Below, in pieces: positions 3,044 through 34,786 of a stretch of DNA of 54,838 nucleotides (within the stretch, counting starts at the first letter, position 1; every line of letters starts with the position of its first letter). The DNA lies in IMG/VR virus record IMGVR_UViG_3300032285_003295, positions 1 through 54,838 of that record; one strand, 5' to 3'. This DNA comes from a virus (lineage: Duplodnaviria; Caudoviricetes). The notes under the pieces are model-generated. The model was not told the origin of the DNA. It saw only the letters and a list, made by a program, of their open reading frames with translations, and searched no databases. Position numbers and translations under genes: made by a program.

Positions 3044-4756
3044 ATGGCAAACGATAACCAAAAACTAACTGCCCAAATGATCGATCTTAACCGTAGCATG
3101 GATAAGCTTGCAGGTGAGATCAAAAAGAATACAACCGCCACACAGGAAATTTCCGAATCCCAACAAGATGCAGACAAAGCTAAATCTCAAGATCTTAAAT
3201 CTTTAATAGACTCTTTAAGCAGTCTAAAAGATTTGAAAGGTCTAACAGACGAGATAAAAAAATTAGATCTTGGAAATCTATCTAAAACATTAGGAGATTT
3301 GCCGGGTGCTCTATCTGGACTCACCAAAGGACCTTTATCCTCTTTAATTGGTAAGGGAACTGGTGAAAAAATAGGAAATATTCTCGGCGGAGCAGGAAAG
3401 GGTTTTAATGTTGGTAAAATTCTAGGTGGATTTCAGGAAGGCGGAGTTGCTAAAAAAGAGGGGCAGTATGTTGTTGGTGAAAACGGACCTGAAGTTGTAA
3501 AGCTTCCAGCGGGAGCTGCAGTTATACCTTTGGATATAAAAGATTTCATTACCGGATTAGCTAAAGTTCCAGAATTGGCAGATCTTGTTAAGAATAAGGA
3601 GATTAATTTTTATGGTGATAGAGATGAGGCTTCTATAGTAAAGGGTGACGGCAAGGATTTAAAGAACAGAATATCTCTAGAAAAATTAAAAGACAAATAT
3701 GAGGATGCTTTAGACGATCAGGAATCTCTAGATAAAGCTAAGCAAGACCCTACTGTTTTAGCAAGTCTTAAAGAGCAGAATAAAATAATAAGGGATCTTA
3801 TCGGTAAAGGAAATTCTAAAGTCCAAGATTCTATCCAGGCTAATGACTCGGAGTACTATAAAATATGGAACTCTAGTATAAAGTGGATGGATAAAGATCA
3901 ACTTAAAACCTTTAATTCAATATGGGACAAGGCAATTGCAAGCTTACCTAAAGAAGCAGTTAATGATTTAACAATATCAAGAACCAAACTTTTAGCGTTA
4001 GAAAGTTTATCCAAGTTAAATAAGCCTTCTGAATCAAAAGAAACCGCTAAAACTGTAGATCTTGCACCAAAAGCGGAGACAAAGAATGTAGATGCTAAGA
4101 AAAAAGAGGCAGGATCGGGTCCAACAGTTGAAGCAAAACCAGAAGTACTTAAGACAGCAACTGAATCAATAAAAGGTGCAGCCACTGAGGGTATCAAGAA
4201 TAATATACCTAAAATAGGTGATATTTTTTCCGCTGTGGGAGGCGATAGTGCATTAGGAAAAAAAGGGTCTGATATAGTTAAAAAAGCAGGTGGATTACTC
4301 AGTAGTGAACTTGGCAAAAATCTAGGCGGAATAGGTGGGGCTGGAAATAAGATAACTGATTTTCTAGGAAAAGGTACAGTACCAGGAGGTACAGAATTTA
4401 AGAAAACAATAACCTCATTGGGATCATTTGCGAAAAATCCACAGACTGGTATAGAGAAGAATATAGAAAAATTCACTTCCGATATATCGGGACTTTTGAA
4501 ATCTAAATCCCCGTTACCTCCTTCTAAAACAGCTGATTCCACATCTGAGCAATCTGGTGGATTAACTCCTGGGGCATCCGAAGGTTCTGTGAAAAAGGAT
4601 GAATCAGGTAAAGACGAGAAAGGAAAGCCAAAAGACATGCAATCTGAGATAGATGCTATTAAGGGACTCTTAGCTAGGGTAGCTTCCGCATTAGAAGGAA
4701 CACTTGATGTGTCAATGATGGAAAATCCATTCAGACCTGATTCAAGAAAGGTCTAA
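3044..4756 (+). CDS. Putative tape measure / baseplate hub protein (gp29-like)
   Basis: 570 aa, helical and Gly/Lys-rich, FQEGG...VVGENGPEVV motif common in tape-measure proteins; follows the chaperone pair; AATATATA late-like motif at 3016-3023. Confidence 0.5.
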   Translation: MANDNQKLTAQMIDLNRSMDKLAGEIKKNTTATQEISESQQDADKAKSQDLKSLIDSLSSLKDLKGLTDEIKKLDLGNLSKTLGDLPGALSGLTKGPLSSLIGKGTGEKIGNILGGAGKGFNVGKILGGFQEGGVAKKEGQYVVGENGPEVVKLPAGAAVIPLDIKDFITGLAKVPELADLVKNKEINFYGDRDEASIVKGDGKDLKNRISLEKLKDKYEDALDDQESLDKAKQDPTVLASLKEQNKIIRDLIGKGNSKVQDSIQANDSEYYKIWNSSIKWMDKDQLKTFNSIWDKAIASLPKEAVNDLTISRTKLLALESLSKLNKPSESKETAKTVDLAPKAETKNVDAKKKEAGSGPTVEAKPEVLKTATESIKGAATEGIKNNIPKIGDIFSAVGGDSALGKKGSDIVKKAGGLLSSELGKNLGGIGGAGNKITDFLGKGTVPGGTEFKKTITSLGSFAKNPQTGIEKNIEKFTSDISGLLKSKSPLPPSKTADSTSEQSGGLTPGASEGSVKKDESGKDEKGKPKDMQSEIDAIKGLLARVASALEGTLDVSMMENPFRPDSRKV

Positions 4757-4777
4757 TCTTATAATAATTTTTTTTAA

Positions 4778-4799
4778 CCGTAGTAATTCTTTATATTTG
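4778..4799 (+). promoter_or_regulatory. Early/host-type promoter CCGTA-N9-TATATTTG
   Basis: TAnnTTTG is the Bacteroidota housekeeping -7 element; same layout at 18981 and 25425; about 15 nt upstream of ATG. Confidence 0.65.
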
Positions 4800-4813
4800 T
4801 TAAAAATATAGAA

Positions 4814-5407
4814 ATGTGGAATAAATCCATCTCCGGATCTTTAAGGCATCCATTAAAAATATTAGAGGACCCCGAATTTTTAGCAATCCCTAATTGGAGC
4901 ATAATCGAAGATCCTTCTGATCTATTTAGGGTTAACTGGGACTCCGCAGATTCACTAGATCCAAACAATCTCACGATACACTCAGACGAAAAGTCATTAA
5001 GAATGGATCTGATCTATTTAAGAATGGCAAAAACATGGGGCGAGAATTCATATTGTAAAAGAATGCAAGTTGGATGCCTGATGGTTAGGGATAAGCTAAT
5101 CATCTCTGACGGATACAACGGATCACCTTCGGGATTTCCAAATGCCTGTGAGGATGAAGATATGAACACACTCCCGTATGTTCTACATGCTGAAGCCAAT
5201 GCTATTACTAAACTAGCTAAGAGCACTCAAAGTTCGGATGGAGCAACCCTATATGTAACCCTATCGCCCTGTTTTGAATGCTCTAAATTAATCATACAAT
5301 CTGGGATCAGAAGGGTAGTATTTTCAGAAGTTTATAGAAAACCTGAATCCCTCCCATTTCTGGCCGAAGCAGGGGTTGAATTAGTAAAAATAAGTAAACC
5401 ATTATAA
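4814..5407 (+). CDS. dCMP deaminase
   Basis: IISDGYNG, HAEANA and PCFEC zinc motifs; about 60 aa N-terminal extension. Confidence 0.93.
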   Translation: MWNKSISGSLRHPLKILEDPEFLAIPNWSIIEDPSDLFRVNWDSADSLDPNNLTIHSDEKSLRMDLIYLRMAKTWGENSYCKRMQVGCLMVRDKLIISDGYNGSPSGFPNACEDEDMNTLPYVLHAEANAITKLAKSTQSSDGATLYVTLSPCFECSKLIIQSGIRRVVFSEVYRKPESLPFLAEAGVELVKISKPL

Positions 5408-5409
5408 TT

Positions 5410-6045
5410 ATGATAGAATTAACGCAGGATTTAAAAAGTAAACAAAAGGAGAAGAACATTCAAAAATTAGCAGAGGAGTTCATTTTAACAAGGAGTGATA
5501 AATCTTTTAAAATGCTATTTGAGAGATTAAGACCGGGGGTATCAAACCATTGCTTTTTGATTCTGAAAGACCAGGAACTTGCTGAGGATGCCTTTCTTAA
5601 CACTATGTCTAAGATTTGGAGTAAGATTGATCAATATGATCTAATCAGAGGTAACTTTTCAACTTGGTGTTATAATATAGCTAGGAATGAATCCCTCCTA
5701 CTTATAAAATCAAGAAAAAGGTATAGTAGCCACCTAGATTCTGATCTAGAGTACCTTTCTTCTAAAAATTCTATAGGTGATCTTGGAGGCCATTATACTT
5801 TAGAAGAAGATCCAAATTATGCTTTTTATGGTGAGGAAAACAAGACAGATGCTGTTTACGAGTCTGTTTTAGATGAGATCAGAACCCTTCCTGAGCTATA
5901 TAGGGATATCATGATAGATCGTGAGATTAATGGGATGAAATACAAGGATATTGCAGAAAAGTATAACATCAAGAAAAGATCAATAGCCACTAGGATAAGA
6001 AGAGCTAGAGGGAGAATACGTAAAAAAATGGACAAGAAACAATAA
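5410..6045 (+). CDS. ECF-type RNA polymerase sigma factor
   Basis: Region 2 LAEDAFLNT..KIW..IDQYD..RGNFSTWCYNIARN; region 4 LPELYRD...GMKYKDIAEKYNI....IATRIRRAR. Confidence 0.88.
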   Translation: MIELTQDLKSKQKEKNIQKLAEEFILTRSDKSFKMLFERLRPGVSNHCFLILKDQELAEDAFLNTMSKIWSKIDQYDLIRGNFSTWCYNIARNESLLLIKSRKRYSSHLDSDLEYLSSKNSIGDLGGHYTLEEDPNYAFYGEENKTDAVYESVLDEIRTLPELYRDIMIDREINGMKYKDIAEKYNIKKRSIATRIRRARGRIRKKMDKKQ

Positions 6046-6063
6046 TCCTTTCTGGCAGTATAA
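6036..6063 (+). promoter_or_regulatory. Middle-class promoter GAAAC-N18-TATAA
   Basis: Bipartite motif with fixed 18-nt spacer shared with 7316, 13075, 20350, 38576. Confidence 0.6.
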
Positions 6064-6077
6064 AAATAAAAGGAGAA

Positions 6078-6506
6078 ATGTTAAGACTTCTTAAAGTTAT
6101 AAAGGAGATAAGACTTTACCGCGAATATCTTAAAACGGTTAAGCAAAAATCTGAAGAATCCCCGTTTTTCACTAGAATGAATTTACGCGTGGATTGGGTA
6201 GGTAGAGTTTATACCGTTGTGAATCTACCCCAACAGGTTATTCAATCTCCGGATCTTCCGAAAGAGGCAAGACCCTCTTTTGTGATGAATGAGATAAAAC
6301 CAATCAATGAGTATTTTAAATCTCTGAACCTAGAGGAGCTAATGACACTTTCGATGGAGTCAGTTAAGGGTACAAACGATGAATCTTATCTGATCGTTTA
6401 TCAATATGTTTTTAGGAATCTTACTATTCTTTGGATCCTTAGATTTTTAGGGGAGTTAGCTATTATTATTTTTGCCCTCGTGAAGTGGGGTCATTTTATT
6501 TTTTAA
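6078..6506 (+). CDS. Hypothetical protein with C-terminal membrane anchor
   Basis: 142 aa ORF; hydrophobic C-terminus ILWILRFLGELAIIIFALV. Confidence 0.7.
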   Translation: MLRLLKVIKEIRLYREYLKTVKQKSEESPFFTRMNLRVDWVGRVYTVVNLPQQVIQSPDLPKEARPSFVMNEIKPINEYFKSLNLEELMTLSMESVKGTNDESYLIVYQYVFRNLTILWILRFLGELAIIIFALVKWGHFIF

Positions 6507-10267: not shown

Positions 10268-10291
10268 ATGAGATCAAAAAAAATAAAAACT

Positions 10292-12865
10292 ATGGACTTT
10301 ATAAACCAAGTTAAACAACTAAAAGAGCAAACTAAATCTCCTGAGGTTAGACAAATATGCGAAAACTACCTTAATGGTGGAAGCAATGCTTCTAAAGAAG
10401 CTATTACAGATGCAATCAATGAGCATTTTTCTAAGGCTCCTGAGAGTTTGAATGTCCAGAACTACAGGGACGTTATTAAAAATGAAGAGATGCAAACAGC
10501 TAAAAGAATGGCTGATTCTTTAATGGAATCATGGGGTTCTACCTCAAAGTCTTCTTTGAATAACTCAGGCTCGTACATTTCTAATGTGAATGATGACAAT
10601 GCTCAAAGAATGTTAACTGAAAGCATGGAGAGTCTTTCTAACGAGGATCCTACAGCAAAAGCTTTCGTTGAAGCTCAGGGTTTAAATAATATGGGTGTAA
10701 TGGAAGCAATTTCAACAATTAGAAATTCTTCTATCTACGATCATCCTGGTGTTAAAATAGTTTGTGAAAAATACGCTGGACTTATACAGGCTAAGAGAGT
10801 CCCAGAATTTTCTTTGATCAATAATTTCGTAGCAGAGACTGCACCTTTCAAATGGGATACTACCATCGGATCTGTTGTAGAAGAGCTTAGCGAGAAAGCA
10901 AGTAAATATTCTAGAGAAATAGAAGTTTCTATAGTTTTAGAAAGAATCAAATCTAGTGGAAGCTATGGATTCTATTCAGAGCTTACAGAGTCATTAAACT
11001 CTTGGTTAGTTTCTGAAAACAGATCATCTGGTCTTTTAGCTAAAAATATATCTAAATGGTCTTTTAATCCGGTTGTTAGAAATCTAATTAACTACTTAAA
11101 TGTTAACGAGGCTAAATCTACTAATAAATTAGAAATCCCTATGAATGCTCAGGGAGAATCTACTGTTTCTAGAGTATACTCTCCAGTATTGGTAGAAAGT
11201 GAAAGAACACTATTCGCTATAGGTTCAACAATATTTGAGATGACAGAAGATACTTTTGAAAAAGTTTCTCCTAAGTCTTTTTCTAAAATTCCTGCTGATT
11301 ATTTACAACTTGTTTCTATAGCAAATGATAAATCTGTTAAAATCAACGAAAGCGGAATATCGGTTAGATTCGGTAAAAAATCAGTTAGATTGATAGAAGA
11401 AAACTCAGATATTTCAGTTTATTTGGATAGATCTAAATTGAAATTCAGATCTCTTGGCGAATTAGGAAAATTGCTAAGCTTAGAAACAGGATCTTATCTA
11501 GGAGTTAATGAGAGTCAAACTATAAACAATATTATCTCTCTTTACAGAGGATATAACGATATTGTAGAATTAGATTTTGCTAAATCTATAACTTCTAACA
11601 TCTATGAGGGATTAGGAATTAATCTTATCAAAGCTAACGGTAAAATATATTTACACCGTATAAATGAGGCAATGAGAGAAAATTCTCTATTCCAAGTTAA
11701 TGGAACACAGGCTGTTAAAGCTGTTAAGGATGTACTAAGATATGACATATCTGAAGGATTAACTGAATTCTTAGAAGGCGAGCAAAAGGTTAAATCTGTA
11801 ATGGTAAACGATAGAACTAAAGTTCTTGAAAACATTTCAAAGGTTGAATCCGAAATTAACAAATTGGAGACATTAATGGAAAGCAATCCTCTTTACTCTA
11901 ATTCTAAAGAGATAAAATCAGCTCACTCCCTTTTGAATAACGAACTATCAGTTCTTAAAGAAAAATGGAATCAAATAAATCTAGAATTATCTAAGATAGA
12001 ATCTGAGCCTCAGGCAGAAGCGGATCTTTTAGAGGATAGCGCATTTAATATCGGATCTTATATCAAAGTAAAGGAATCGGGTGAAACTGGAAAGATCATA
12101 TCTGTAGATGGAACATCTGGAAGATACACAGTTCTTTTAGATAACGGAAAAACCACAGATTTATTGGTTAATGAAATAGTTGATCTAGAGCAGGCTTTAA
12201 ATCAAGCATCTGAGGAAAATCCAGAAACGAATGATGCAGATGAAGACGGTCAAGAAGAAATGAAGGAGTCTAACAATTTCAATAAGTCAAATTTAAAAAT
12301 ATCAGAGCAAAAGAAAATATTAAAAACACTTGCTACAAATCATGGATTTGCAAAAGCACCAGGAGAGAATAAAGACGAAATAGAAATGGGAATGGATAGC
12401 GTTCATGGCTACAACATTACAATGAATGAAGCTAAAGCAAAGGCAGAAAAACCAGTCTTAGCTAAAGCACCTGGGGATAGCAAACTTAATAAAGGTAAAG
12501 AGGGTAATCCAAAAGGATCATTAGAAACTGCTCCTGGAAATGATAAAATGGCTAAAGGAAAAGTAGCGGGAGCGAAAGATCTAGAAGAAGCTCCTGGGGC
12601 TAAAGGAAAAACAGACTTTGATGGACACGATGGAGCTGAAAATGGATATGAAATAGGATACAACCTAAGAGAGCAAGAGAATGGCAAATTAGCAGAAGCA
12701 CCAGAAAACGGGAAGGGAGCTAAAGAAACTAAATCAACATCATCAGCATTAGTATCTAAACAAAATTTAGCTAAAGCACCCGGTAAAGGTAAAGAAGTTG
12801 ATTTTGAAGCTAATGATGACAATGGATATAATTTGGCCGAATCTGAGGATTTAAAAAAAAACTAA
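10292..12865 (+). CDS. Large putative prohead core/internal head protein with (K/E)APG repeats; probable -1 frameshift extension to 13023
   Basis: Late promoter; many L/I/M-x-E sites; coiled-coil; SH3/KOW-like segment FNIGSYIKVKESGETGKIISVD; C-terminal LAKAPG and GYNxxE repeats. Confidence 0.6.
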   Translation: MDFINQVKQLKEQTKSPEVRQICENYLNGGSNASKEAITDAINEHFSKAPESLNVQNYRDVIKNEEMQTAKRMADSLMESWGSTSKSSLNNSGSYISNVNDDNAQRMLTESMESLSNEDPTAKAFVEAQGLNNMGVMEAISTIRNSSIYDHPGVKIVCEKYAGLIQAKRVPEFSLINNFVAETAPFKWDTTIGSVVEELSEKASKYSREIEVSIVLERIKSSGSYGFYSELTESLNSWLVSENRSSGLLAKNISKWSFNPVVRNLINYLNVNEAKSTNKLEIPMNAQGESTVSRVYSPVLVESERTLFAIGSTIFEMTEDTFEKVSPKSFSKIPADYLQLVSIANDKSVKINESGISVRFGKKSVRLIEENSDISVYLDRSKLKFRSLGELGKLLSLETGSYLGVNESQTINNIISLYRGYNDIVELDFAKSITSNIYEGLGINLIKANGKIYLHRINEAMRENSLFQVNGTQAVKAVKDVLRYDISEGLTEFLEGEQKVKSVMVNDRTKVLENISKVESEINKLETLMESNPLYSNSKEIKSAHSLLNNELSVLKEKWNQINLELSKIESEPQAEADLLEDSAFNIGSYIKVKESGETGKIISVDGTSGRYTVLLDNGKTTDLLVNEIVDLEQALNQASEENPETNDADEDGQEEMKESNNFNKSNLKISEQKKILKTLATNHGFAKAPGENKDEIEMGMDSVHGYNITMNEAKAKAEKPVLAKAPGDSKLNKGKEGNPKGSLETAPGNDKMAKGKVAGAKDLEEAPGAKGKTDFDGHDGAENGYEIGYNLREQENGKLAEAPENGKGAKETKSTSSALVSKQNLAKAPGKGKEVDFEANDDNGYNLAESEDLKKN

Positions 12866-13023
12866 GTCGTAACTTTTACTTTGCACCAAAGGGTGAAAAT
12901 CAAAATGCGCCAGGCAAAAAGTTCGTAGATTCTCTAGAGGGTAAACTTAGTAAAGCCCCTACAGGTAAAGAAAATAAACCTGAAGATACAGAGGATTCAG
13001 AAGGACACGAAGATTCTAAATAA
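12862..13023 (+). other. -1 frame extension of 10292..12865 (53 aa: LSRNFYFAPKGENQNAPGKKFVDSLEGKLSKAPTGKENKPEDTEDSEGHEDSK)
   Basis: Open frame with no ATG, entered by -1 slip at TTAAAAAAAAAC; continues the AP repeats; terminator lies after its stop. Confidence 0.7.
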
Positions 13024-13039
13024 TAGCATCATAAAATAT

Positions 13040-13071
13040 AAAGAGAACACAAATTAAGTGTTCTCTTTTTT
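13040..13071 (+). terminator. Rho-independent terminator
   Basis: AAAGAGAACAC-AAATTAA-GTGTTCTCTTT plus T-run. Confidence 0.85.
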
Positions 13072-13136: not shown

Positions 13137-13496
13137 ATGGCAAAAGACTATGTTAAAAACAGTGACCTCATGGCAGCTGTTGTAGAATCCAAAAAGCAAG
13201 GAAAGCTAACCCCTGAAACTATTGCAATGTTTACCCTAATGATACAGGGGATTTCCAAAAAAATGGCCTACAAGGATCCTGATGATAAAGATGACTGCAT
13301 GGCTTTTGCTATGGAGGATTTGTGCAAGTATTGGGATAGATTCAATCCTGCAAAATCAAATAACCCATTTGCATACTTTACCCAGATTGCAAAGAATGGA
13401 TTTGCCAAAGGATGGAAAAAACTACATCCACCTAAAAGTCCTAAAACTATTCCGTTTAGCCATATAACTGGAGACGATAACACATACAATGTTTAA
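13137..13496 (+). CDS. Late-transcription sigma factor (T4 gp55-like), minimal 119 aa
   Basis: YVKNSDL N-terminus and RFNPAKSNNPFAYFTQIA signature. Confidence 0.85.
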   Translation: MAKDYVKNSDLMAAVVESKKQGKLTPETIAMFTLMIQGISKKMAYKDPDDKDDCMAFAMEDLCKYWDRFNPAKSNNPFAYFTQIAKNGFAKGWKKLHPPKSPKTIPFSHITGDDNTYNV

Positions 13497-14616: not shown

Positions 14617-16227
14617 ATGGCAGGTTTTACAGATAGTACCCCGTCGGGTTCACCGGTAGTTCAGAGAATCAGAGATTCCCTGAAAAAACTGAGCACATTC
14701 GGGATGAAGTATGATGACATGGTTATCAGAAACTCTCAGGCTGTGGGTGTATCTGAAGCTGCTTTTTTGAATAAGAATAAATCGAATGTTGAGGACGAGA
14801 CGATGCTTTGGACCCTAGCCAAGCAGGACATCACCACTAAACAATTCATATCTTATTTTGATAAAGATTACAAGGGAAAAAGAGATTACCTTAGGAAATT
14901 CTCACTAAATCCAGAGGTTGAATGGGTTCTTGATACAATCTGCGATGAATCTATTTCGTATGATCCGTCTAATTTCTTTGCTTATCCTGATTTCCTTGAC
15001 CTAACTGATATTAACGAGAAGGTTAAAGACGAGCTTTATGATATCTATAAAAAGCTATATGATATTTGGGGCTTCTGTGACGATATCACTGCATGGCAAT
15101 ACTTCCGCCAGCTCTTGGTTGATGGATTTCTTTGTTTTGAGATCATATACGATAACACAGGAAAGGAAATAATAGGATTCAAGGAATTGGATCCTGTTAC
15201 AATAATACCTAGCGTTGAAAAGCAAGTAGATGGGTCTTTTTTAAACACATGGATGCAATTCCCCCAAGATCCTAAAAGAAGAAGAATTCTTTATGATCCA
15301 CAAGTAATCTATATTTCTTATGCTAAGGGTAATGCCATATCAAGAGTAAGCTATGTTGAGAGATTAATTAGACCTTATAATATACTTAGAATAATCGAGC
15401 ACACTAGGGTTATTTGGTCCGTAATGAATGCTTCCTTTAGGTTAAAGATGACCGTTCCTATAGGAACTAAATCCCAGCAGAAAGGGATGCAGACGCTTGG
15501 AGAGCTTATGAGTGTGTACAAGGAGGATATGCAACTTAATGATGACACTGGTGAACTCCTTGTAGATGGAAGACCCAAAATTCAATTTTACAAGAACTAT
15601 CTAATGCCTTCCGGTGTTAATGGTACCCCTAGAATAGAGCCTATAACCAATGAAGGACCAAATCTGAATGACACTACCCCTTTAAATTACTTCTTCGATA
15701 AATTTGTTCAGGAATCAAAAGTACCTTCCTCTAGATTCCATGGACCTGATGGCGGAACATCATCCACATATGCTAATGCTGCAGAGGGATTAGATAAAGA
15801 AGAGATTAGATTTTTTAAATTTATATCTAGGCTTAGATCTCTATTTCAAGAGATCCTAACTAAGCCTATGTGGATTCAGATGGTTAAGAAATATCCAAAT
15901 CTGGAAAAAGACTTTATGTTTAAAAGCCAACTTGGTCTTGATTATTTTTCAGATAATCCATTCCGTGTTAATCAGGAGATGGATATTATAAACAAAAGAA
16001 AAGAATCGGTTACCTCTATGCAAGCATTAGTTGGTGATGACGAAAAACCTTTTTTCTCTACTGCTTTTCTTATTGAAAATTTTCTAGGTCTTTCTAATCA
16101 GGATATACAGGCAAACAAAGAAGCAATTAAGAGGAAGGAAGAAGAAAAGAAAAAGGAAGAAAAGAAAGCAGGTAAAGAAGGTGGTGAAGAAGGAGGAGAA
16201 GCAGCAGGGGGAGGAGTAACATTATAA
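14617..16227 (+). CDS. Portal protein 1 (T4 gp20-like)
   Basis: 536 aa; PEVEWVLDTICDE, LLVDG, ELDP, SYVERLIRPYNILRIIE, YFFDKF...VPSSR, EEIRFFKFISRLR. Confidence 0.85.
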   Translation: MAGFTDSTPSGSPVVQRIRDSLKKLSTFGMKYDDMVIRNSQAVGVSEAAFLNKNKSNVEDETMLWTLAKQDITTKQFISYFDKDYKGKRDYLRKFSLNPEVEWVLDTICDESISYDPSNFFAYPDFLDLTDINEKVKDELYDIYKKLYDIWGFCDDITAWQYFRQLLVDGFLCFEIIYDNTGKEIIGFKELDPVTIIPSVEKQVDGSFLNTWMQFPQDPKRRRILYDPQVIYISYAKGNAISRVSYVERLIRPYNILRIIEHTRVIWSVMNASFRLKMTVPIGTKSQQKGMQTLGELMSVYKEDMQLNDDTGELLVDGRPKIQFYKNYLMPSGVNGTPRIEPITNEGPNLNDTTPLNYFFDKFVQESKVPSSRFHGPDGGTSSTYANAAEGLDKEEIRFFKFISRLRSLFQEILTKPMWIQMVKKYPNLEKDFMFKSQLGLDYFSDNPFRVNQEMDIINKRKESVTSMQALVGDDEKPFFSTAFLIENFLGLSNQDIQANKEAIKRKEEEKKKEEKKAGKEGGEEGGEAAGGGVTL

Positions 16228-16236
16228 AAATTAAAA

Positions 16237-17904
16237 ATGGCAGGATTTTTAGACGCATTTAAACCAAACCAGTCCGCTCTTGGAAACATAATCCGGAATA
16301 TTGGAAAAATTTCTAAGTTTGGGATGGAATATGATGATATGGTTGTGAGAAACTCACAAGCAATCGGAAAAACAGAATCTGCTTTTTTTAATCAGCAAGG
16401 AACTGGCTTTACTGAGAATGATGCTTTCTACTGGACTCTTTCATATCAAGACACTAGGGTTAGAAAATACATTGCATACTTTGATAAAGACTATATAGAG
16501 AAAAGAAACTTTCTAAGAAAGTTTTCCCTTAATGGTGAAATAGAATTTATACTAGATACCATAACTGATGAATGTATCTCTTATAACGATAGAAACTTCT
16601 TTGCCACACCTTCTTTTGCCAACCTTAATGATATAAAGGATAAAGTTAAAAACAAAATTACGGACCACTATAATCGTTTATATAACGTCTTTGGATTTCA
16701 GAATGGTGTTTTAGCTTGGCAGTTTTTCAAGCAGTTTTTAGTTGATGGATTTCTTTGCTTTGAGATAATATACGATAACAAGGGTAAGGAGATTATAGGT
16801 TTTAAAGAGCTAGATCCAACCTCAGTGCAACCTGCCGTTGAAAAAATCAGCGAGAGCGAATATGCACAATTTTGGATTCAATATCCAAAGAATCCCCAGA
16901 TGACACGAAAGCTTACCAACGAGCAGATTGTCTATATTTCTTATGCTAAGGGTAATTCAATATCAAGAGTAAGCTACCTGGAAAGACTGGTTAGGTCTTA
17001 TAACATTCTAAGAATAATGGAGAACTCCAGAGTTATTTGGAATGTGATGAATGCCTCTTATAGGCTTAAATTTGTTATTCCAACCGGTAGTCAATCCCAA
17101 CAAAAAGCTTTGCAAACGTTGGGACAATTGATGTCTAATTATAAGGAGGAATATTCACTTAATGATAATTCGGGAGAATTAACGGTTAACGGTAAACCTA
17201 AAGTCCAATTCTATAAAAATTATCTCTTTCCAGAACAAAACGGACAAGCTCCTGATATATCATCTCTAAATCCTGCAGGTCCTGACTTCAATGTAATGGA
17301 CAACGTTCTTTACTTCTTCAATAAATTGAAGATGGATTCTAAAATACCTTATGCTAGATTTGCTTCAAGAGGATCAACTCCTGTAAACTATCAAGCAGGG
17401 ATAGATGCATTAGAAAGAGATGAGGTTAGATTTGAAAAATTCTTAAGAAGACTGAGATCTGTTTTTCAGGAAATCTTAGTTAAACCACTCTATATACAAA
17501 TGTGTTTAGATTTCCCTGAGCTTTCTAAAGATAGAGCATTCAAGGCAAATCTTGGTCTTAATTTCCATAAAGACAGTGAACTTGAGTCTATGATAGAGCT
17601 TGCGAATTATAAAAAGAGAGGAGAATTTATAGCGGGTCTCTTGGAGCTAAAGGTTAAAGTTGGGGAGGAAGAGAAATCTTATTTTGACAATAATTTTTTA
17701 ATTCAGAGATATCTTGGTCTAAATCCAGAACAGACCAGAATTAACGAGGAGTACAAGAAAAGAGAGGCAAAAGAAGCTGAAAAGGCTGGTGCAGCTGGTG
17801 GGGAAGCAGCCGCTGGTGGAGAATCAGCTGCGGGCGGAGAAGCAGCTCCTGCCGCAGGAGAAGCAGCTGCTGGGGGTGGAACAGAAGAAGCTCCTGCCGT
17901 ATAA
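16237..17904 (+). CDS. Portal protein 2 (T4 gp20-like paralog)
   Basis: 555 aa; same motifs (SYLERLVRSYNILRIME, YFFNKL...IPYAR, RDEVRFEKFLRRLR); Ala/Gly/Glu tail. Confidence 0.85.
   Translation: MAGFLDAFKPNQSALGNIIRNIGKISKFGMEYDDMVVRNSQAIGKTESAFFNQQGTGFTENDAFYWTLSYQDTRVRKYIAYFDKDYIEKRNFLRKFSLNGEIEFILDTITDECISYNDRNFFATPSFANLNDIKDKVKNKITDHYNRLYNVFGFQNGVLAWQFFKQFLVDGFLCFEIIYDNKGKEIIGFKELDPTSVQPAVEKISESEYAQFWIQYPKNPQMTRKLTNEQIVYISYAKGNSISRVSYLERLVRSYNILRIMENSRVIWNVMNASYRLKFVIPTGSQSQQKALQTLGQLMSNYKEEYSLNDNSGELTVNGKPKVQFYKNYLFPEQNGQAPDISSLNPAGPDFNVMDNVLYFFNKLKMDSKIPYARFASRGSTPVNYQAGIDALERDEVRFEKFLRRLRSVFQEILVKPLYIQMCLDFPELSKDRAFKANLGLNFHKDSELESMIELANYKKRGEFIAGLLELKVKVGEEEKSYFDNNFLIQRYLGLNPEQTRINEEYKKREAKEAEKAGAAGGEAAAGGESAAGGEAAPAAGEAAAGGGTEEAPAV
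17785..17900 (+). repeat. Low-complexity AAGGE repeats in portal 2 C-terminus
   Basis: AGAAGGEAAAGGESAAGGEAAPAAGEAAAGGG; locally GC-rich. Confidence 0.8.
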
Positions 17905-29759: not shown

Positions 29760-31742
29760 ATGCCAAGTAATTTACAGAATACTACCCTTAACGAGCAAAT
29801 GGTTTTCATCCTAGAAAAGCAAGACTTTGTTTTAGAATCAAAGAAGAGCGACAATGGAAACTATATCCTAGAGGGTATAGCTGCTGTCTTCGGTAAAGAG
29901 AACAACAATCACAGAATCTATGAGGAAGCAGAATATCTTCCGCATCTTGATTATCTGAAAGATAAGATCTCTCAAAACAGACTTTTAGGTGAATTAGATC
30001 ACCCTGAGAAATTTGATGTTTCACTTAAGAACATCTCTCACATGATTACCGATCTAAACTACGATAAGTCAGGAAGAAAGCTAGGTATAAAGGTTCAGAT
30101 CTTAGATACCCCAGCAGGTCAAATAGCTAAAAATCTAATCGACGCTGGAATTCCACTTTCTATATCTTCAAGAGCAGCTGGATCTGTGGGATCAGACAAG
30201 AAGGTACAGATCAAAAAAATCTTTACCTATGATCTAGTAGCTGATCCTGGATTTCAGGATGCTCAGCTTAAAAGAGTCTATGAGTCTGCAGGTTTCACCG
30301 AAGAAGAATTCACAATCTATAAGAATAACAGCGTAACAAGCGGTCTTGAGTGTGTAAATGAATCATTTGGTTTAGAAAATGAATCTTCACTGAAGATATA
30401 TAAGATAGAAAACAACGAAGAGTTTAACAACATCATAAACAAAAACGACAACAAAAATAAGAAATTCCTTATGGAGAATAAAGAATTTGTTACTTCAGAC
30501 GAGCTTAATCAATATTCCATCTTCTTGAAGAAAGAGATGGATGCTATGAGAGCTGCAATCACAGAAGTCAAAGAAGAAAAAGCCGCATTAAGTGAGTCTA
30601 ATGAAATTTCAAGCTCATATTCTGCAAAGCTAGAAGAAAGAGTTGCTAAGTTAGAGAAATACACAGAGTATCTAGCTGAGAATCTTGAAAACAGTATCTC
30701 TTATGGAGAATACTTAGCAGAGAATTTAGATCAAAGCATCAGCTACAGTAAATACTTAGCTGAGAACCTTGATAAGAACATCTCTTACTCTAAGTACATA
30801 GCAGAGAACGTTGACAAGTCAATCTCTTATTCTGAGTATGTAGCAGAGAGCGTAGATAAGAATATCGAATACTCTAAGTATCTAGCTGAGAAATTGGATG
30901 ACAATATCCAATATTCAGAATACATAGCTGAAAACTTAGACAAAGGTATTTCTTATGCTGAGTATCTTGGTGAGAACCTAGATAAAGGAATTGCTTACAC
31001 TGAATATGTTGCCGAAAAACTAAATGATGGTATTGAATATACAGAATATGTTGCTGAAAGCCTAAATAAAGGAATTGAATATTCTGACTACTTAGCAGAA
31101 AGCATCAATAAAGGTATAGACTACTCTGAATATCTTGCAGAGAAATTAACAAGATCAATTTCTTACAGCGAATATATAGCAGAGTCTATGCAATCGAAAT
31201 TAACAAACTCAAATCCAGCGAAAGAAGAATCATTAAGAGAAAGTGCAGAGCTTAGTGCAAGTGCTAATCTAAATGAATCAGGATTTGCAGGTAACTATGA
31301 TGATCTTTCATCAAAAATCAATTCACTAATTGAATCAGTTAACACACAAAAAACTGAGTCGAATATAAACGAAGCAGCTAAGAAATTTGCAGCTCCGGCC
31401 GAAACACAAAAGGCAGAAGAAGTTCTTAACGAGTCTGAGAACACCAACAAAACAGGTCTTAAATTCATCGACGAAATTCCTGAAGAATATGCTCAGGTTT
31501 GGGAATCACTGAACGAAGGTCACAAGCAATCAATTATTGCTCAGTCAAACTTCTACAGATTGGATACACCTTACCAGATCAAAAATTTCTGGTCAACACG
31601 TCAACTTGGAGCTAAACCAGTTGGATTACAGAAACTTGAAGAGAACGAAAACATTTCAGAAAGCTCAAACACACAGGGTTATTCAAATGATTATATGAAT
31701 CACATAGCTTCAATGTTAGAGCAGAAATTCACAAAAAGATAA
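29760..31742 (+). CDS. Prohead protease (gp21-like) fused to scaffold/core protein (gp22-like)
   Basis: NNNHRIY, GELDHP, ISH, DTPAG, ISSRAAGSV, TYDLVADPGF; C-terminal coiled-coil with 14-aa repeats; directly upstream of MCP. Confidence 0.9.
   Translation: MPSNLQNTTLNEQMVFILEKQDFVLESKKSDNGNYILEGIAAVFGKENNNHRIYEEAEYLPHLDYLKDKISQNRLLGELDHPEKFDVSLKNISHMITDLNYDKSGRKLGIKVQILDTPAGQIAKNLIDAGIPLSISSRAAGSVGSDKKVQIKKIFTYDLVADPGFQDAQLKRVYESAGFTEEEFTIYKNNSVTSGLECVNESFGLENESSLKIYKIENNEEFNNIINKNDNKNKKFLMENKEFVTSDELNQYSIFLKKEMDAMRAAITEVKEEKAALSESNEISSSYSAKLEERVAKLEKYTEYLAENLENSISYGEYLAENLDQSISYSKYLAENLDKNISYSKYIAENVDKSISYSEYVAESVDKNIEYSKYLAEKLDDNIQYSEYIAENLDKGISYAEYLGENLDKGIAYTEYVAEKLNDGIEYTEYVAESLNKGIEYSDYLAESINKGIDYSEYLAEKLTRSISYSEYIAESMQSKLTNSNPAKEESLRESAELSASANLNESGFAGNYDDLSSKINSLIESVNTQKTESNINEAAKKFAAPAETQKAEEVLNESENTNKTGLKFIDEIPEEYAQVWESLNEGHKQSIIAQSNFYRLDTPYQIKNFWSTRQLGAKPVGLQKLEENENISESSNTQGYSNDYMNHIASMLEQKFTKR
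30395..30402 (+). promoter_or_regulatory. Internal late-class promoter GATATATA upstream of in-frame ATG 30471
   Basis: Exact motif after the protease domain, followed by an A-rich leader. Confidence 0.55.
30471..31742 (+). CDS. Putative nested in-frame scaffold protein (MENKEFVTSDELNQY...)
   Basis: In-frame ATG preceded by AAACAAAAACGACAACAAAAATAAGAAATTCCTT and an internal late promoter. Confidence 0.55.
   Translation: MENKEFVTSDELNQYSIFLKKEMDAMRAAITEVKEEKAALSESNEISSSYSAKLEERVAKLEKYTEYLAENLENSISYGEYLAENLDQSISYSKYLAENLDKNISYSKYIAENVDKSISYSEYVAESVDKNIEYSKYLAEKLDDNIQYSEYIAENLDKGISYAEYLGENLDKGIAYTEYVAEKLNDGIEYTEYVAESLNKGIEYSDYLAESINKGIDYSEYLAEKLTRSISYSEYIAESMQSKLTNSNPAKEESLRESAELSASANLNESGFAGNYDDLSSKINSLIESVNTQKTESNINEAAKKFAAPAETQKAEEVLNESENTNKTGLKFIDEIPEEYAQVWESLNEGHKQSIIAQSNFYRLDTPYQIKNFWSTRQLGAKPVGLQKLEENENISESSNTQGYSNDYMNHIASMLEQKFTKR
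30660..31187 (+). repeat. About 12.5 x 42-bp (14-aa) tandem repeat, consensus YSEYLAENLDKSIS
   Basis: Read directly; first Tyr codon 30660, thirteenth 31164 (12 x 42 nt). Confidence 0.95.
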
Positions 31743-31766: not shown

Positions 31767-33527
31767 ATGAAATTGATTAACGAACAAGAAATCTATAATA
31801 CTTGGGCGCCTCTAATCGAGAGCAAGGCTGGTATTACAGATGAAAGCAAAAAAGGATGGTTGACTAAATATTGTCACTACCATTCATTAAATGAATCTGC
31901 TGGTGCTTACAACTCACTAGGTGTAGTAAACGGTATGGGTGCTGTACAAGCTCCTTTATTCCCAGGTGCTAGCTATGCTGGTGCTTTAACTGGTACTGCT
32001 TCTACAAGCGCTAACGCAAACTTCTACAACACTGGATATCAAGGTTCAGGCGATAAATTCCCTTCATTACTTCCTTTAGCTATTCAGGTAGCTGCGAAGA
32101 CTGTTGGTTTTGATATCGTTCCTGTTATCCCAATGTCTGGTCCTACTGGTATCTTGTCTTACTTAGACTATGTATACGCTGGTGGTAAAATCTCTGGTGC
32201 TACTTCAGGTACTTCTGGTGCTGATCTAGCTGATGCTCCTACAATGATTAAATTCGGAGCTGGTTTAACTGGTTCTACTACTACACCAGTTGGTGGTGGT
32301 ACTGCAGGATTTGGTAGCACAAACGTAGGTACACTTTACTACATCGGTGCTACTGGAACTGTTACAACAGGATCTGGCCACATCACTGCTAAGTTTGTAG
32401 GTCTTTCAAGAATCGATGGTAGCCCAATCTACCAAATCACAAACATCGGTGATGGTTGGAACGTTGCTTCTATCGTTGCTGCTGGTGCCCTTATCTCTAC
32501 AAGCACTACAGTAAGTACAGCTAACGCAGTTGGTACTGTTACTACTACAGCTTCATTGGTTAAAGGTCTTGAAGATCATATCCAAGGTTTCTCTGGTGCT
32601 GGTTTTAACAATGATAAAGATTGGCAAGGACCATTCGTTGATGGTACTAAAACTTACAACCCAATGTTAAGAGCGGTTGGAGAGTCTACATACTACAATT
32701 CAATGGGTCTTTCTACCTTCACTAAATTCGTTGAAGCTGAAACTTTCCAAGTTGCTGCTTCTGTGACAACTGAGCAAATTCAAGATTTGAACAAACAATT
32801 CGGTATCGATGTTATTTCAATGATCGAAAACGCTCTTGTTAACGAGGTTTCTCAATCTATCAACAAGCACATCCTTTCTAGAGCATTTGCTTTAGGCTGG
32901 TCAAACCATCTTCAATTCTACAACGTTGAAAATCAAAACTTAAACCTTAACTTAAACATTAATGGTTCTGTAGGTACAACTTCAGCTTACGTAGGTAAGG
33001 ATGACGTGGGTGCAACTATGCCAATTCCTCAAGGTCCAACTAGCACTAGCTTCGAGAACTTGTCAACTCTACAAAGAAGACTATTCTCAAGAATTCTTGC
33101 TGCTGCTAACGTGGTTGCTAACAGAGGTAGAAGAGGTCCTGCTAACTTCATCGTTACTAATGCTAACGTTGCAAGTGCTTTGCAAGATATTTCTCAATTC
33201 ACTTTTGCTCCATTCTCTAACACCTTAACTCAAAACAACGGAACACTTTATCCAGTAGGTTCACTTGCTGGTATGACAGTATACGTTGACCAAAACATGG
33301 CTTTCAGTGATACTAGAATCTGTGTTGGTAGAAAAGGTGGTGACGACGAACCAGGTCTTAAGTTCATGCCTTACATGATGGCTGAGTCAATCCAGACTAT
33401 CTCAGAAGGTACAATGTCTCCTAAAATCGCGGTTAAATCTAGATATGCTCTAGTAGAAGCTGGTTTCTTACCAGAAACTTTGTATCTTACATTCTATGTA
33501 AGTGTACCTGCTGGCGGTATCGCTTAA
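31767..33527 (+). CDS. Major capsid protein (T4 gp23-like)
   Basis: W.PLIE, VPVIPMSGPTG, TTEQIQDL, NEVSQSINK, ANRGRRGPANF, VGSLAG..VYVD, FMPY, KSRYAL; strong codon bias. Confidence 0.95.
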   Translation: MKLINEQEIYNTWAPLIESKAGITDESKKGWLTKYCHYHSLNESAGAYNSLGVVNGMGAVQAPLFPGASYAGALTGTASTSANANFYNTGYQGSGDKFPSLLPLAIQVAAKTVGFDIVPVIPMSGPTGILSYLDYVYAGGKISGATSGTSGADLADAPTMIKFGAGLTGSTTTPVGGGTAGFGSTNVGTLYYIGATGTVTTGSGHITAKFVGLSRIDGSPIYQITNIGDGWNVASIVAAGALISTSTTVSTANAVGTVTTTASLVKGLEDHIQGFSGAGFNNDKDWQGPFVDGTKTYNPMLRAVGESTYYNSMGLSTFTKFVEAETFQVAASVTTEQIQDLNKQFGIDVISMIENALVNEVSQSINKHILSRAFALGWSNHLQFYNVENQNLNLNLNINGSVGTTSAYVGKDDVGATMPIPQGPTSTSFENLSTLQRRLFSRILAAANVVANRGRRGPANFIVTNANVASALQDISQFTFAPFSNTLTQNNGTLYPVGSLAGMTVYVDQNMAFSDTRICVGRKGGDDEPGLKFMPYMMAESIQTISEGTMSPKIAVKSRYALVEAGFLPETLYLTFYVSVPAGGIA

Positions 33528-33640: not shown

Positions 33641-34786
33641 ATGAAAAATCTACCAAGCTTTAATGAATTCAGAAAATATGATTCTCTTATGGAATCGGTA
33701 GATCCTGAATTGATTAACGAGTTTAAAAGTCTAGAACAAGCCGATCCTTACCACACGGTAAATGAGGGCCAATTTTTAAATGATGTAAAAAATACTCTTT
33801 CTAAGTTTTTCTTAGGAGCTTTTTCTAGAGTTGGAATGATTGACGAGGCTAGAAAAGTACTTGTTAATCTAGAAATAGATCTAATCGAGGCCAAGCATAA
33901 GTTTGAGAATGCTATGGACGATATGGACGCTCAGGTAAGAAAACTTAGTGGACCAGACGACAAAGAAAAGGCCATTGCTTTAAGAAGAGACATGGACTCT
34001 AAGATAAAAGAATACCAAACCTATGTTAAAACTCAGAAACTTAAAATTAAAAAAGCGGAAGAGTTTGTAGAAAAGGTGATAGACGGTAGCGAGAGAAGAA
34101 AAGAATATTATGAAGTTGGAAGATCTGAAGATGAAATAGCTCTAGCTGAACTCGAGTATAAATTAGCTAAGGATAAAGCTGACTCTTCAGAACTTAAAAA
34201 ATATGAAGATAAGATAGCCCAAGCTAAGGAAGATGCAAAAGAAAAAGCAGAGAAGGTTGAGAACAAGCTAGAGGATGAAGCTAAAGAGGAAGGTGACGAT
34301 AAAAAATTAGACACTTCTATAGATCCGGAGAAGGAGAAGAAAAAAATATCAGGCAGAAGGGGAAAGGATATCATACATAGAAAGAATTCTTTGGCAAAAG
34401 AAATAGCAGATCTTAAATCTGAATTGGAAAGAAAATTGAAATCTCTTCAGAGTAAATCAGAGAAGGGTAAGCTAACTGAGAAAGCAATTAAGTCTTATAT
34501 GATAGAGCTTTTAGATCTTAGTTCTGCTTTAGATGCCAAAAAGAATCTTCTTAAAAATCTAAATGATTTAGGCCAATCAGAATCTGACATTTCAAGTAAG
34601 GTTAGAAAGGAAAGTGAATTTACACAATTGACTAATAAAATAAACCAAAGCATTACTGATGGTCAGGATGCTAATACCGGAACTAAAAAAGTTGTTTCTG
34701 ACATATTCTCATCTGTTGCTAAAGGAGCAAAGGGAGAAATAAAGCCAGAGAAAATAAAAGATGCTATTAAAAAAATAAACAAATAA
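33641..34786 (+). CDS. Putative capsid-internal coiled-coil protein
   Basis: MKNLPSFNEF..., LME and VNE sites; K/E-rich helices. Confidence 0.65.
   Translation: MKNLPSFNEFRKYDSLMESVDPELINEFKSLEQADPYHTVNEGQFLNDVKNTLSKFFLGAFSRVGMIDEARKVLVNLEIDLIEAKHKFENAMDDMDAQVRKLSGPDDKEKAIALRRDMDSKIKEYQTYVKTQKLKIKKAEEFVEKVIDGSERRKEYYEVGRSEDEIALAELEYKLAKDKADSSELKKYEDKIAQAKEDAKEKAEKVENKLEDEAKEEGDDKKLDTSIDPEKEKKKISGRRGKDIIHRKNSLAKEIADLKSELERKLKSLQSKSEKGKLTEKAIKSYMIELLDLSSALDAKKNLLKNLNDLGQSESDISSKVRKESEFTQLTNKINQSITDGQDANTGTKKVVSDIFSSVAKGAKGEIKPEKIKDAIKKINK

Follow-up and report, generated by a model that had tools for sequence, protein, structure and literature searches.

A conserved run of nine adenines predicted to extend an 865-residue protein by recoding in large T4-like phages

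The window analysed here is the whole of IMG/VR virus record IMGVR_UViG_3300032285_003295, a single metagenomic contig of 54,838 bases from a T4-like phage. The subject of this work is the 3' end of one of its genes, an open reading frame (ORF) of 865 codons that closes on a run of nine adenines (A9), together with the reading frame that continues beyond its stop codon. The locus comprises the following features.

10268..12865, + strand: zero-frame ORF from the ORF list, 865 amino acids, encoding the putative short isoform (C-terminus SEDLKKN-stop)
12853..12861, + strand: A9 tract, the candidate recoding site, giving A_AAA_AAA and A_AAA_AAC in phase
12863..12865, + strand: zero-frame stop TAA, directly 3' of the last codon of the shift site, ending the short isoform
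12862..13023, + strand: -1-frame extension of 53 codons (12862-13020) with TAA at 13021-13023, running LSRNFYFAP, then KAPTGK and an acidic end, without a start codon
13040..13076, + strand: terminator-like hairpin (13040-13068; 11-bp stem, 7-nucleotide loop) and T tract, 3' of the second stop

The ORF ends GAG GAT TTA AAA AAA AAC TAA. A preliminary description, made from the letters alone, had proposed that this end forms three overlapping in-phase heptamers (T TTA AAA, A AAA AAA and A AAA AAC) and that the -1 frame stays open for 53 codons. The sequence bears out the ORF end, the position of A9 and all three heptamers, and translation confirmed the length of the open frame. The -1 frame of the window translates as KKKLSRNFYFAPKGENQNAPGKKFVDSLEGKLSKAPTGKENKPEDTEDSEGHEDSK and ends at TAA 13021-13023; from the A9 tract onwards it gives KKK and then LSRNFYFAPKGENQNAPGKKFVDSLEGKLSKAPTGKENKPEDTEDSEGHEDSK. 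Joined to the upstream ORF, the extension makes a long isoform of 918 residues. The +1 frame past the run has stops all along. The -1 stretch was said to lack ATG; a reading of the sequence found no GTG or TTG there either, and the ORF list shows none in this stretch. The terminator described after the second stop is likewise present, as a hairpin of 11 pairs followed by the T tract.

At about 33% G+C, a single A9 in the window is not beyond chance. Dinucleotide-preserving shuffles of the window, however, gave a mean of 9.4 A9 or T9 runs (standard deviation 5.4) against the one found on both strands of the actual 54.8 kb. Long runs are therefore depleted, and the sole survivor is the recoding site. 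Just five runs of nine A's occur in 134.8 kb of upstream ORF sequence of homologs.

A protein search returned 292 homologs at an expectation value (E) of 0.001 or below, among 8000 candidates scored. The ending noted in the preliminary description proved widespread: 114 of the 120 homologs among the matches listed end in KKN (92) or KKK (22) followed by the stop. One more ends in KKKA and five end otherwise, probably where contig ends cut them. The extension motif was found in frame in none of these 120 proteins, which range from 675 to 988 residues because the disordered C-terminal tail varies in length. Almost all database records lack the predicted long isoform, because gene callers stop at the first stop codon.

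At the DNA level, a first scan of IMG/VR yielded 13 loci, and A9, the stop and a conserved -1 peptide were present at nine of the nine whose 3' end was located (none was located for L012). A profile scan, based on an alignment (A1) of 70 of the 120 listed proteins picked by eye for spread, yielded 80 loci, with relatives on contigs of up to 434 kb. Counts from here on are over 81 places, namely these 80 IMG/VR loci and the window, leaving out the duplicate contigs L001-L013 and a distant relative, L094, described below. At 66 of the 81 places the extension is reached only by a -1 shift like that of the window, on a run of A9 or A10. Neither of the two results named as refuting in the preliminary description, reads with A10 or homologs without the site and the extension, was observed. 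This arrangement persists down to 40-43% protein identity. The zero-frame stop, TAA or TAG, directly follows the run at 63 of the 66 places. It lies one codon further on at two (L051 and L052), and at one (L053) the zero frame continues for 12 codons past the run.

The other places show different layouts. At four (L058, L059, L063 and L090) the extension is in frame with the large ORF and A9 is kept. At three (L061, L062 and L065) the extension is a separate small ORF with its own ATG, inside which A9 lies; in these, at about 5800-6050, the large ORF stops early (STMNNEE-stop) and is followed by a short spacer and then the small ORF. A 74-residue predicted database protein (P0124) corresponds to this split-form ORF. 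Four more (L082, L083, L087 and L091), at 39-47% identity, have neither repeat tail nor extension and carry an acidic C-terminal stretch, and at four (L014, L050, L054 and L069) the contig ends before the 3' end of the ORF. Locus L092 has an additional mid-ORF frame break at about 4400, away from any long A run, possibly through misassembly or because this copy is broken.

Among the places are many nearly identical copies taken from separate samples, and lineages are therefore fewer than places. The 66 shift-type places represent 36 distinct site sequences, of which 29 have A9 and seven A10, with none shorter. The run is followed by C at 19 of these sites, by G at 15 and by T at two. Site codons are invariably NNA AAA AAA AAN or NAA AAA AAA AAN: AAA is the only codon used for either Lys, and the codon before them ends in A throughout, be it for L, V, E, Q or S. 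Inside the same ORFs, used as a control, only 170 of 327 KK pairs are written AAAAAA, and A stands in the third position of the codon before in 99 of 324. By this codon control, run length is kept beyond the need of the encoded residues. A pattern scan of metagenomes found 25 stretches, all 25 with exactly A9 and an immediate zero-frame stop; it is only partly independent of the other counts because several contigs are, judged by their length, the same as IMG/VR loci.

Searched against 1.84 billion representative proteins, the 53-residue peptide matched three small predicted proteins and no other protein family. Two database proteins from contigs of about 1.5 kb (P0121 and P0122) have an in-frame, A10-type junction reading KKKLSRNFYF. 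Among the assembled contigs of four sequencing runs, one (X1 record 4) bridged the A9 run, judged by a 31-letter rule, with 0 differences from the window; X1 may be the window's own sample.

The -1 frame evolves as a coding sequence. We compared 48 distinct cores of 96 nucleotides, each starting N-[FY]-Y-F and drawn from 73 motif-bearing loci. The ratio of non-synonymous to synonymous polymorphism (pN/pS) was 0.348 in the -1 frame versus 1.147 and 1.547 in the other two phases, and pairwise differences at -1-frame codon positions 1, 2 and 3 numbered 10450, 7533 and 19865. Over 47 loci with distinct pairs, the extension core had a mean amino-acid identity of 63% and a pN/pS of 0.35, compared with 81% and 0.174 for the SH3-like block of the main ORF, its best folded part, at the same loci. 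The consensus is [LV]SRN[FY]YFAP, followed by KAP and an acidic end, with NFYFAP and KAP nearly invariant. Constraint on the -1 frame begins right at the run; the Arg three codons past it varies synonymously (CGT, CGC, AGG). These values indicate purifying selection on the -1 peptide, whose frame in the window has no start codon. Across loci, the DNA of the first 12 nucleotides past the run ([CG]TAAG[TC]CG[TC]AAC; window 12862-12873) is more uniform than the remaining extension, which may reflect either selection on the encoded L/V-S-R-N or an element that provides the context for slippage.

It is very probable, judged from sequence comparison, that recoding of some kind at A9 is real and functional. 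The two isoforms that the preliminary description attributed to slippage on A9 are supported by the same -1 shift at 66 of 81 places and by the coding-type selection. We put the probability that transcriptional slippage, with addition of one A, is the main route at roughly one half. Most expression would end at TAA 12863-12865 and give the 865-residue protein, whilst a set fraction would continue in the -1 frame and give the 918-residue isoform with its 53 extra residues. The transcribing RNA polymerase, presumably the host enzyme with a phage late sigma factor of gp55 type, would slip on the nine-A run and add one A to part of the mRNAs. Ordinary translation of these would read L K K K L S R N F Y F.

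According to PMC5009743, bacterial RNA polymerase slips highly efficiently in vivo on runs of nine A's or T's, and a run of this length is used by Thermus dnaX. The same source equates the threshold of about nine with the length of the RNA:DNA hybrid. All 36 distinct sites reach this length. The run is never shorter than nine although a heptamer needs seven, which favours the polymerase. RNAalifold predicted no conserved structure downstream, with 0 pairs on 41 of the 48 distinct sequences (seven near-duplicates omitted; pseudoknots and long-range pairings not searched). The window's 100 nucleotides past the run fold no better than shuffles (z-score +0.42). By eye, no conserved Shine-Dalgarno-like element was seen upstream, the 9-12 nucleotides before the run being variable. 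By these analyses the sites show neither the 3' structure nor the upstream element that can stimulate ribosomal shifting. A_AAA_AAC, found at 19 of the 36 distinct sites, is described as far less shift-prone in E. coli than A_AAA_AAG (PMC5009743). With no 3' structure, half of the sites A_AAA_AAC and the run always at least nine long, transcriptional slippage is therefore placed slightly ahead of ribosomal frameshifting. Retention of the run in the in-frame and split forms also favours the polymerase; at the four in-frame loci, a reading of the sequence indicates that one added A would yield a short product. Slightly more tentatively, we propose that a whole clade of large and huge T4-like environmental phages sets the ratio of two isoforms of a conserved late protein by programmed RNA-polymerase slippage on a run of A's that never falls below nine, and that it has moved repeatedly between frameshift, in-frame (where slippage truncates) and split layouts without losing the run.

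Several points weigh against transcriptional slippage as the route. We infer from sequence that the long form is produced, in what proportion, and that the polymerase is the machine that slips, and the propensity of the host polymerase to slip is assumed. Always in phase, A9 is equivalent to two ribosomal heptamers in tandem, and the conservation of nine could be explained in this way. The immediate stop at 63 of 66 places is a trait of some ribosomal sites, and slippage needs none. The order of heptamers seen in E. coli may differ in the host of this phage. Counts over 81 places exceed the number of independent lineages, many places being close relatives, and the junction of P0121 and P0122 may be a DNA variant or a homopolymer error and not a trace of RNA slippage.

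Ribosomal -1 programmed frameshifting is a credible but less probable account, in which tRNA-Lys on AAA in the P site and tRNA-Asn or tRNA-Lys on AAC or AAG in the A site slip back together on A_AAA_AAN. In a variant of it, the P-site tRNA alone slips, ahead of decoding of the following codon or stop. Every -1 site contains an X_XXY_YYZ heptamer in phase and all 36 distinct ones contain A_AAA_AAN, with two heptamers in tandem in A9, a G after the run at 15 sites, and the stop directly after the site at nearly all places; dnaX variants with a stop in this position are on record (PMC5009743). The conserved -1 product fits ribosomal shifting equally well. Set against it are the negative searches for a conserved stem-loop and Shine-Dalgarno-like element and the prevalence of the heptamer that is weak in E. 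coli. Furthermore, conservation extends to the A before the run's Lys codons and to the first AAA, which one heptamer does not need, and A9 is retained in the in-frame and split forms. Sliding of ribosomes on poly(A) was also considered and is unlikely, being reported as robust at A11 and weak at A9 and A10 (PMC4363877).

The other explanations do away with recoding. Replication slippage might produce a mixture of genomes in which A10 fuses the gene and A9 leaves it short, much like phase variation. Homopolymers are prone to both replication slippage and sequencing error, and the fused junctions of P0121 and P0122 would suit such heterogeneity, P0122 agreeing otherwise with the reading of locus L092, which has A9. 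We consider it improbable: no assembled locus fuses the frames through run length, the out-of-frame length being kept at 66 of 66 places; A9 is present in 25 of 25 metagenome contigs and an in-frame extension in 0 of the 120 listed homologs; and no indel was listed for the contigs of the four runs, though contigs drop rare variants. An extension that is never joined to the large protein, being either a separate small protein with a non-standard start or conserved for a non-coding reason, is improbable to the same degree. Small ORFs with their own start exist in the three split loci and as database proteins P0124 and P0125. By contrast, the window and most loci have no ATG, GTG or TTG before NFYFAP, which begins four codons past the run, and both the coding-type conservation from the run onward and the in-frame fusion at four loci argue for joining. 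The preliminary description had named a homopolymer assembly error as the alternative to its proposal. An error of this kind, or a recently broken gene, would be in keeping with a window that is one metagenomic contig containing an error-prone homopolymer. It is contradicted by the out-of-frame arrangement in 36 distinct site sequences, from many assemblies and down to about 40% identity, and by selection on both frames; selection on the -1 frame therefore rules out, for practical purposes, an assembly error or a fresh pseudogene.

The site resembles several known recoding systems in part. In phage T7, a near-stop -1 shift extends a minor fraction of the capsid protein by tens of residues (gene 10A/10B); the protein described here, by the searches made, is no capsid protein, and the major head gene lies at 31767-33527. 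The closest parallel in principle is dnaX, whose tau and gamma products arise, as summarised in PMC5009743, by a ribosomal -1 shift on A_AAA_AAG in E. coli and by polymerase slippage on a run of nine in Thermus thermophilus. As far as that summary goes, dnaX likewise makes two products with a common N-terminal part and distinct C-termini from one gene via an A run, and which of them is the shifted one varies among dnaX genes, as it does here between frameshift-type and in-frame loci. The differences are that the protein is unrelated and encoded by a phage, that in most lineages the short form is the zero-frame product, and that the 3' stem-loop and upstream Shine-Dalgarno-like stimulator of E. 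coli dnaX have no counterpart found here.

Length variants of one protein made by slippage of bacterial RNA polymerase are also described for Shigella spa13, in which 25-30% of the product has a C-terminal extension (PMC5009743), and for Citrobacter rodentium tssM (PMC4256274). Those are bacterial secretion-system genes, and the passages on them in these sources do not mention comparable conservation or in-frame and split versions. The tail assembly chaperones G and GT of lambda and many tailed phages resemble our site in that a fraction of the product of a late gene is extended by a conserved -1 shift close to its 3' end, in the description given by PMC5009743 and PMC10885494. Those chaperones are small and directly upstream of the tape measure gene, whereas here the protein has 865 residues and its gene is upstream of a gp55-like gene. 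The gene is thus not a small ORF placed before a tape measure gene, and no chaperone family matched it.

By this evidence the locus is a new conserved recoding site of an already known working principle, with either the polymerase or the ribosome as the probable slipping machine. Word searches of the literature, which did not cover supplementary lists of predicted recoding clusters, found no description of it. The site provides a clean, deeply conserved recoding signal in which natural in-frame and split variants act as built-in controls, and at AAC-type sites the junction peptide could separate ribosomal from transcriptional slippage. The extension, with its NFYFAP and KAP motifs and acidic end, is marked as a functional module of a core protein beside head-completion genes and offers a handle on the binding partner of that protein. 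If slippage does operate across the clade, it would be a case of deeply conserved productive transcriptional slippage in a double-stranded DNA phage, and the clade would form a natural series for the evolution of slippage sites.

The structure of the 865-residue protein was modelled with AlphaFold2, with a mean predicted local distance difference test score (pLDDT) of 66.8 and a predicted template modelling score of 0.33. The following parts were distinguished in the model.

Residues about 1-283: helical N-terminal domain
Residues 299-477: beta-rich domain
Residues 498-578: coiled-coil hairpin
Residues 598-639: SH3/Tudor-like barrel
Residues about 650-865 (12218..12862, + strand): disordered C-terminal tail, pLDDT below 50

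Of the seven hydrophobic-x-x-A-P motifs in the zero-frame protein, six lie in the tail (FAKAP, LAKAP, LETAP, LEEAP, LAEAP and LAKAP), and the extension contributes the two best conserved copies, FYFAP and LSKAP. The preliminary description had the extension encode the same repeat as the zero-frame tail. Short hydrophobic-x-x-A-P(-x-G) motifs are indeed common to both, but the similarity by BLASTP was not significant (E 0.11 and 0.19), and TRF found no tandem DNA repeat in the tail (0 rows). The acidic end of the extension resembles the C-terminus of the distant tail-less homologs. In the shortest homologs (723 residues) the zero-frame tail has one hydrophobic-x-x-A-P motif, and the extension therefore supplies most of the motifs there. 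The long isoform would thus differ in the number of partner-binding motifs presented. At window positions 12689-12843, the alignments of contigs from runs X1, X3 and X10 step back by 142-155 bases. Some strains may thus carry one more copy of a unit of about 150 nucleotides in the disordered tail, which fits the 675-988 residue range of homologs.

The protein belongs to no known family. PHROG gave no match to it at E of 0.01 or below, and no Pfam family scored above its cut-off, the nearest being DUF7902 (17.5 bits) and the MutS2/Smr-associated SH3 domain (16.1 bits) against cut-offs of about 26. ESM Atlas returned one unnamed viral cluster at 0.77, which we treat as a lead only. In Foldseek searches of the PDB, the SH3/Tudor-like barrel resembled small Tudor and PWWP domains. 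An RqcH-type fold had the best E there (6.7e-4) but a template modelling score of 0.13 or less, and was not trusted. VIA-align wide matches were confined to the coiled-coil hairpin (495-582) and were to generic coiled coils, whilst in BFVD the fold matches were phage proteins without characterisation, among them a protein of Tenacibaculum phage PTm1.

The gene was labelled head-type in the preliminary description. This label is unproven; its basis is the neighbourhood and 14 [LIM]-x-E-[AGS] motifs in the 865 residues, a density like that of the C-terminal part of the window's own prohead protease. The motif of the T4 prohead protease is L/I-x-E; PMC9958956 does not give it. Proteases of the prohead class are described as cutting after glutamate (PMC5694885).

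The gp55-like gene directly downstream of the recoded gene is followed by gp4-like head-completion, gp2-like and portal genes, and farther on in the window come replication genes, the prohead protease and the major head protein. Other features assigned in the window are as follows.

13137..13496, + strand: gp55-like late sigma factor gene, from the PHROG search
14617-16227 and 16237-17904: two tandem portal paralogs of 536 and 555 residues (phrog_213, E 4e-59 and 1.5e-64)
29760-31742: prohead protease, 660 residues, with the family match spanning residues 21-377
31767-33527: major head protein, 586 residues, with LIES at 16 and LNES at 41 near the N-terminus
33641-34786: ORF next to the major head protein, with LMES at 16
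516-1070 and 1087-1662: two tandem paralogs (phrog_32623), with a weaker match to tail-tube families

A single portal gene is found in most tailed phages. The prohead protease has 11 [LIM]-x-E-[AGS] motifs, mostly in its C-terminal part, and the motifs in the protease, the major head protein and the next ORF are possible maturation cleavage sites. No tRNA genes were found in the window.

Megablast gave no match in a phage collection, where tblastn found one distant relative at 25% identity in LR756500.1 (L094), a 462-kb record. The homolog in that record is likewise followed by gp55-like and gp4-like genes. The downstream order is common to the window and LR756500.1, so that across a broad group of large phages this gene keeps its place beside the one for the late sigma factor. 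In LR756500.1 a 411-residue ORF (972-2207) lies just upstream of the homolog, and one of 537 residues (4540-6153) lies between the gp55-like and gp4-like genes. Sequencing runs holding small shares of the window's sequence are described as freshwater, reservoir, river and lake metagenomes. These large phages form an uncultivated, widespread group, tentatively of freshwater and marine habitat.

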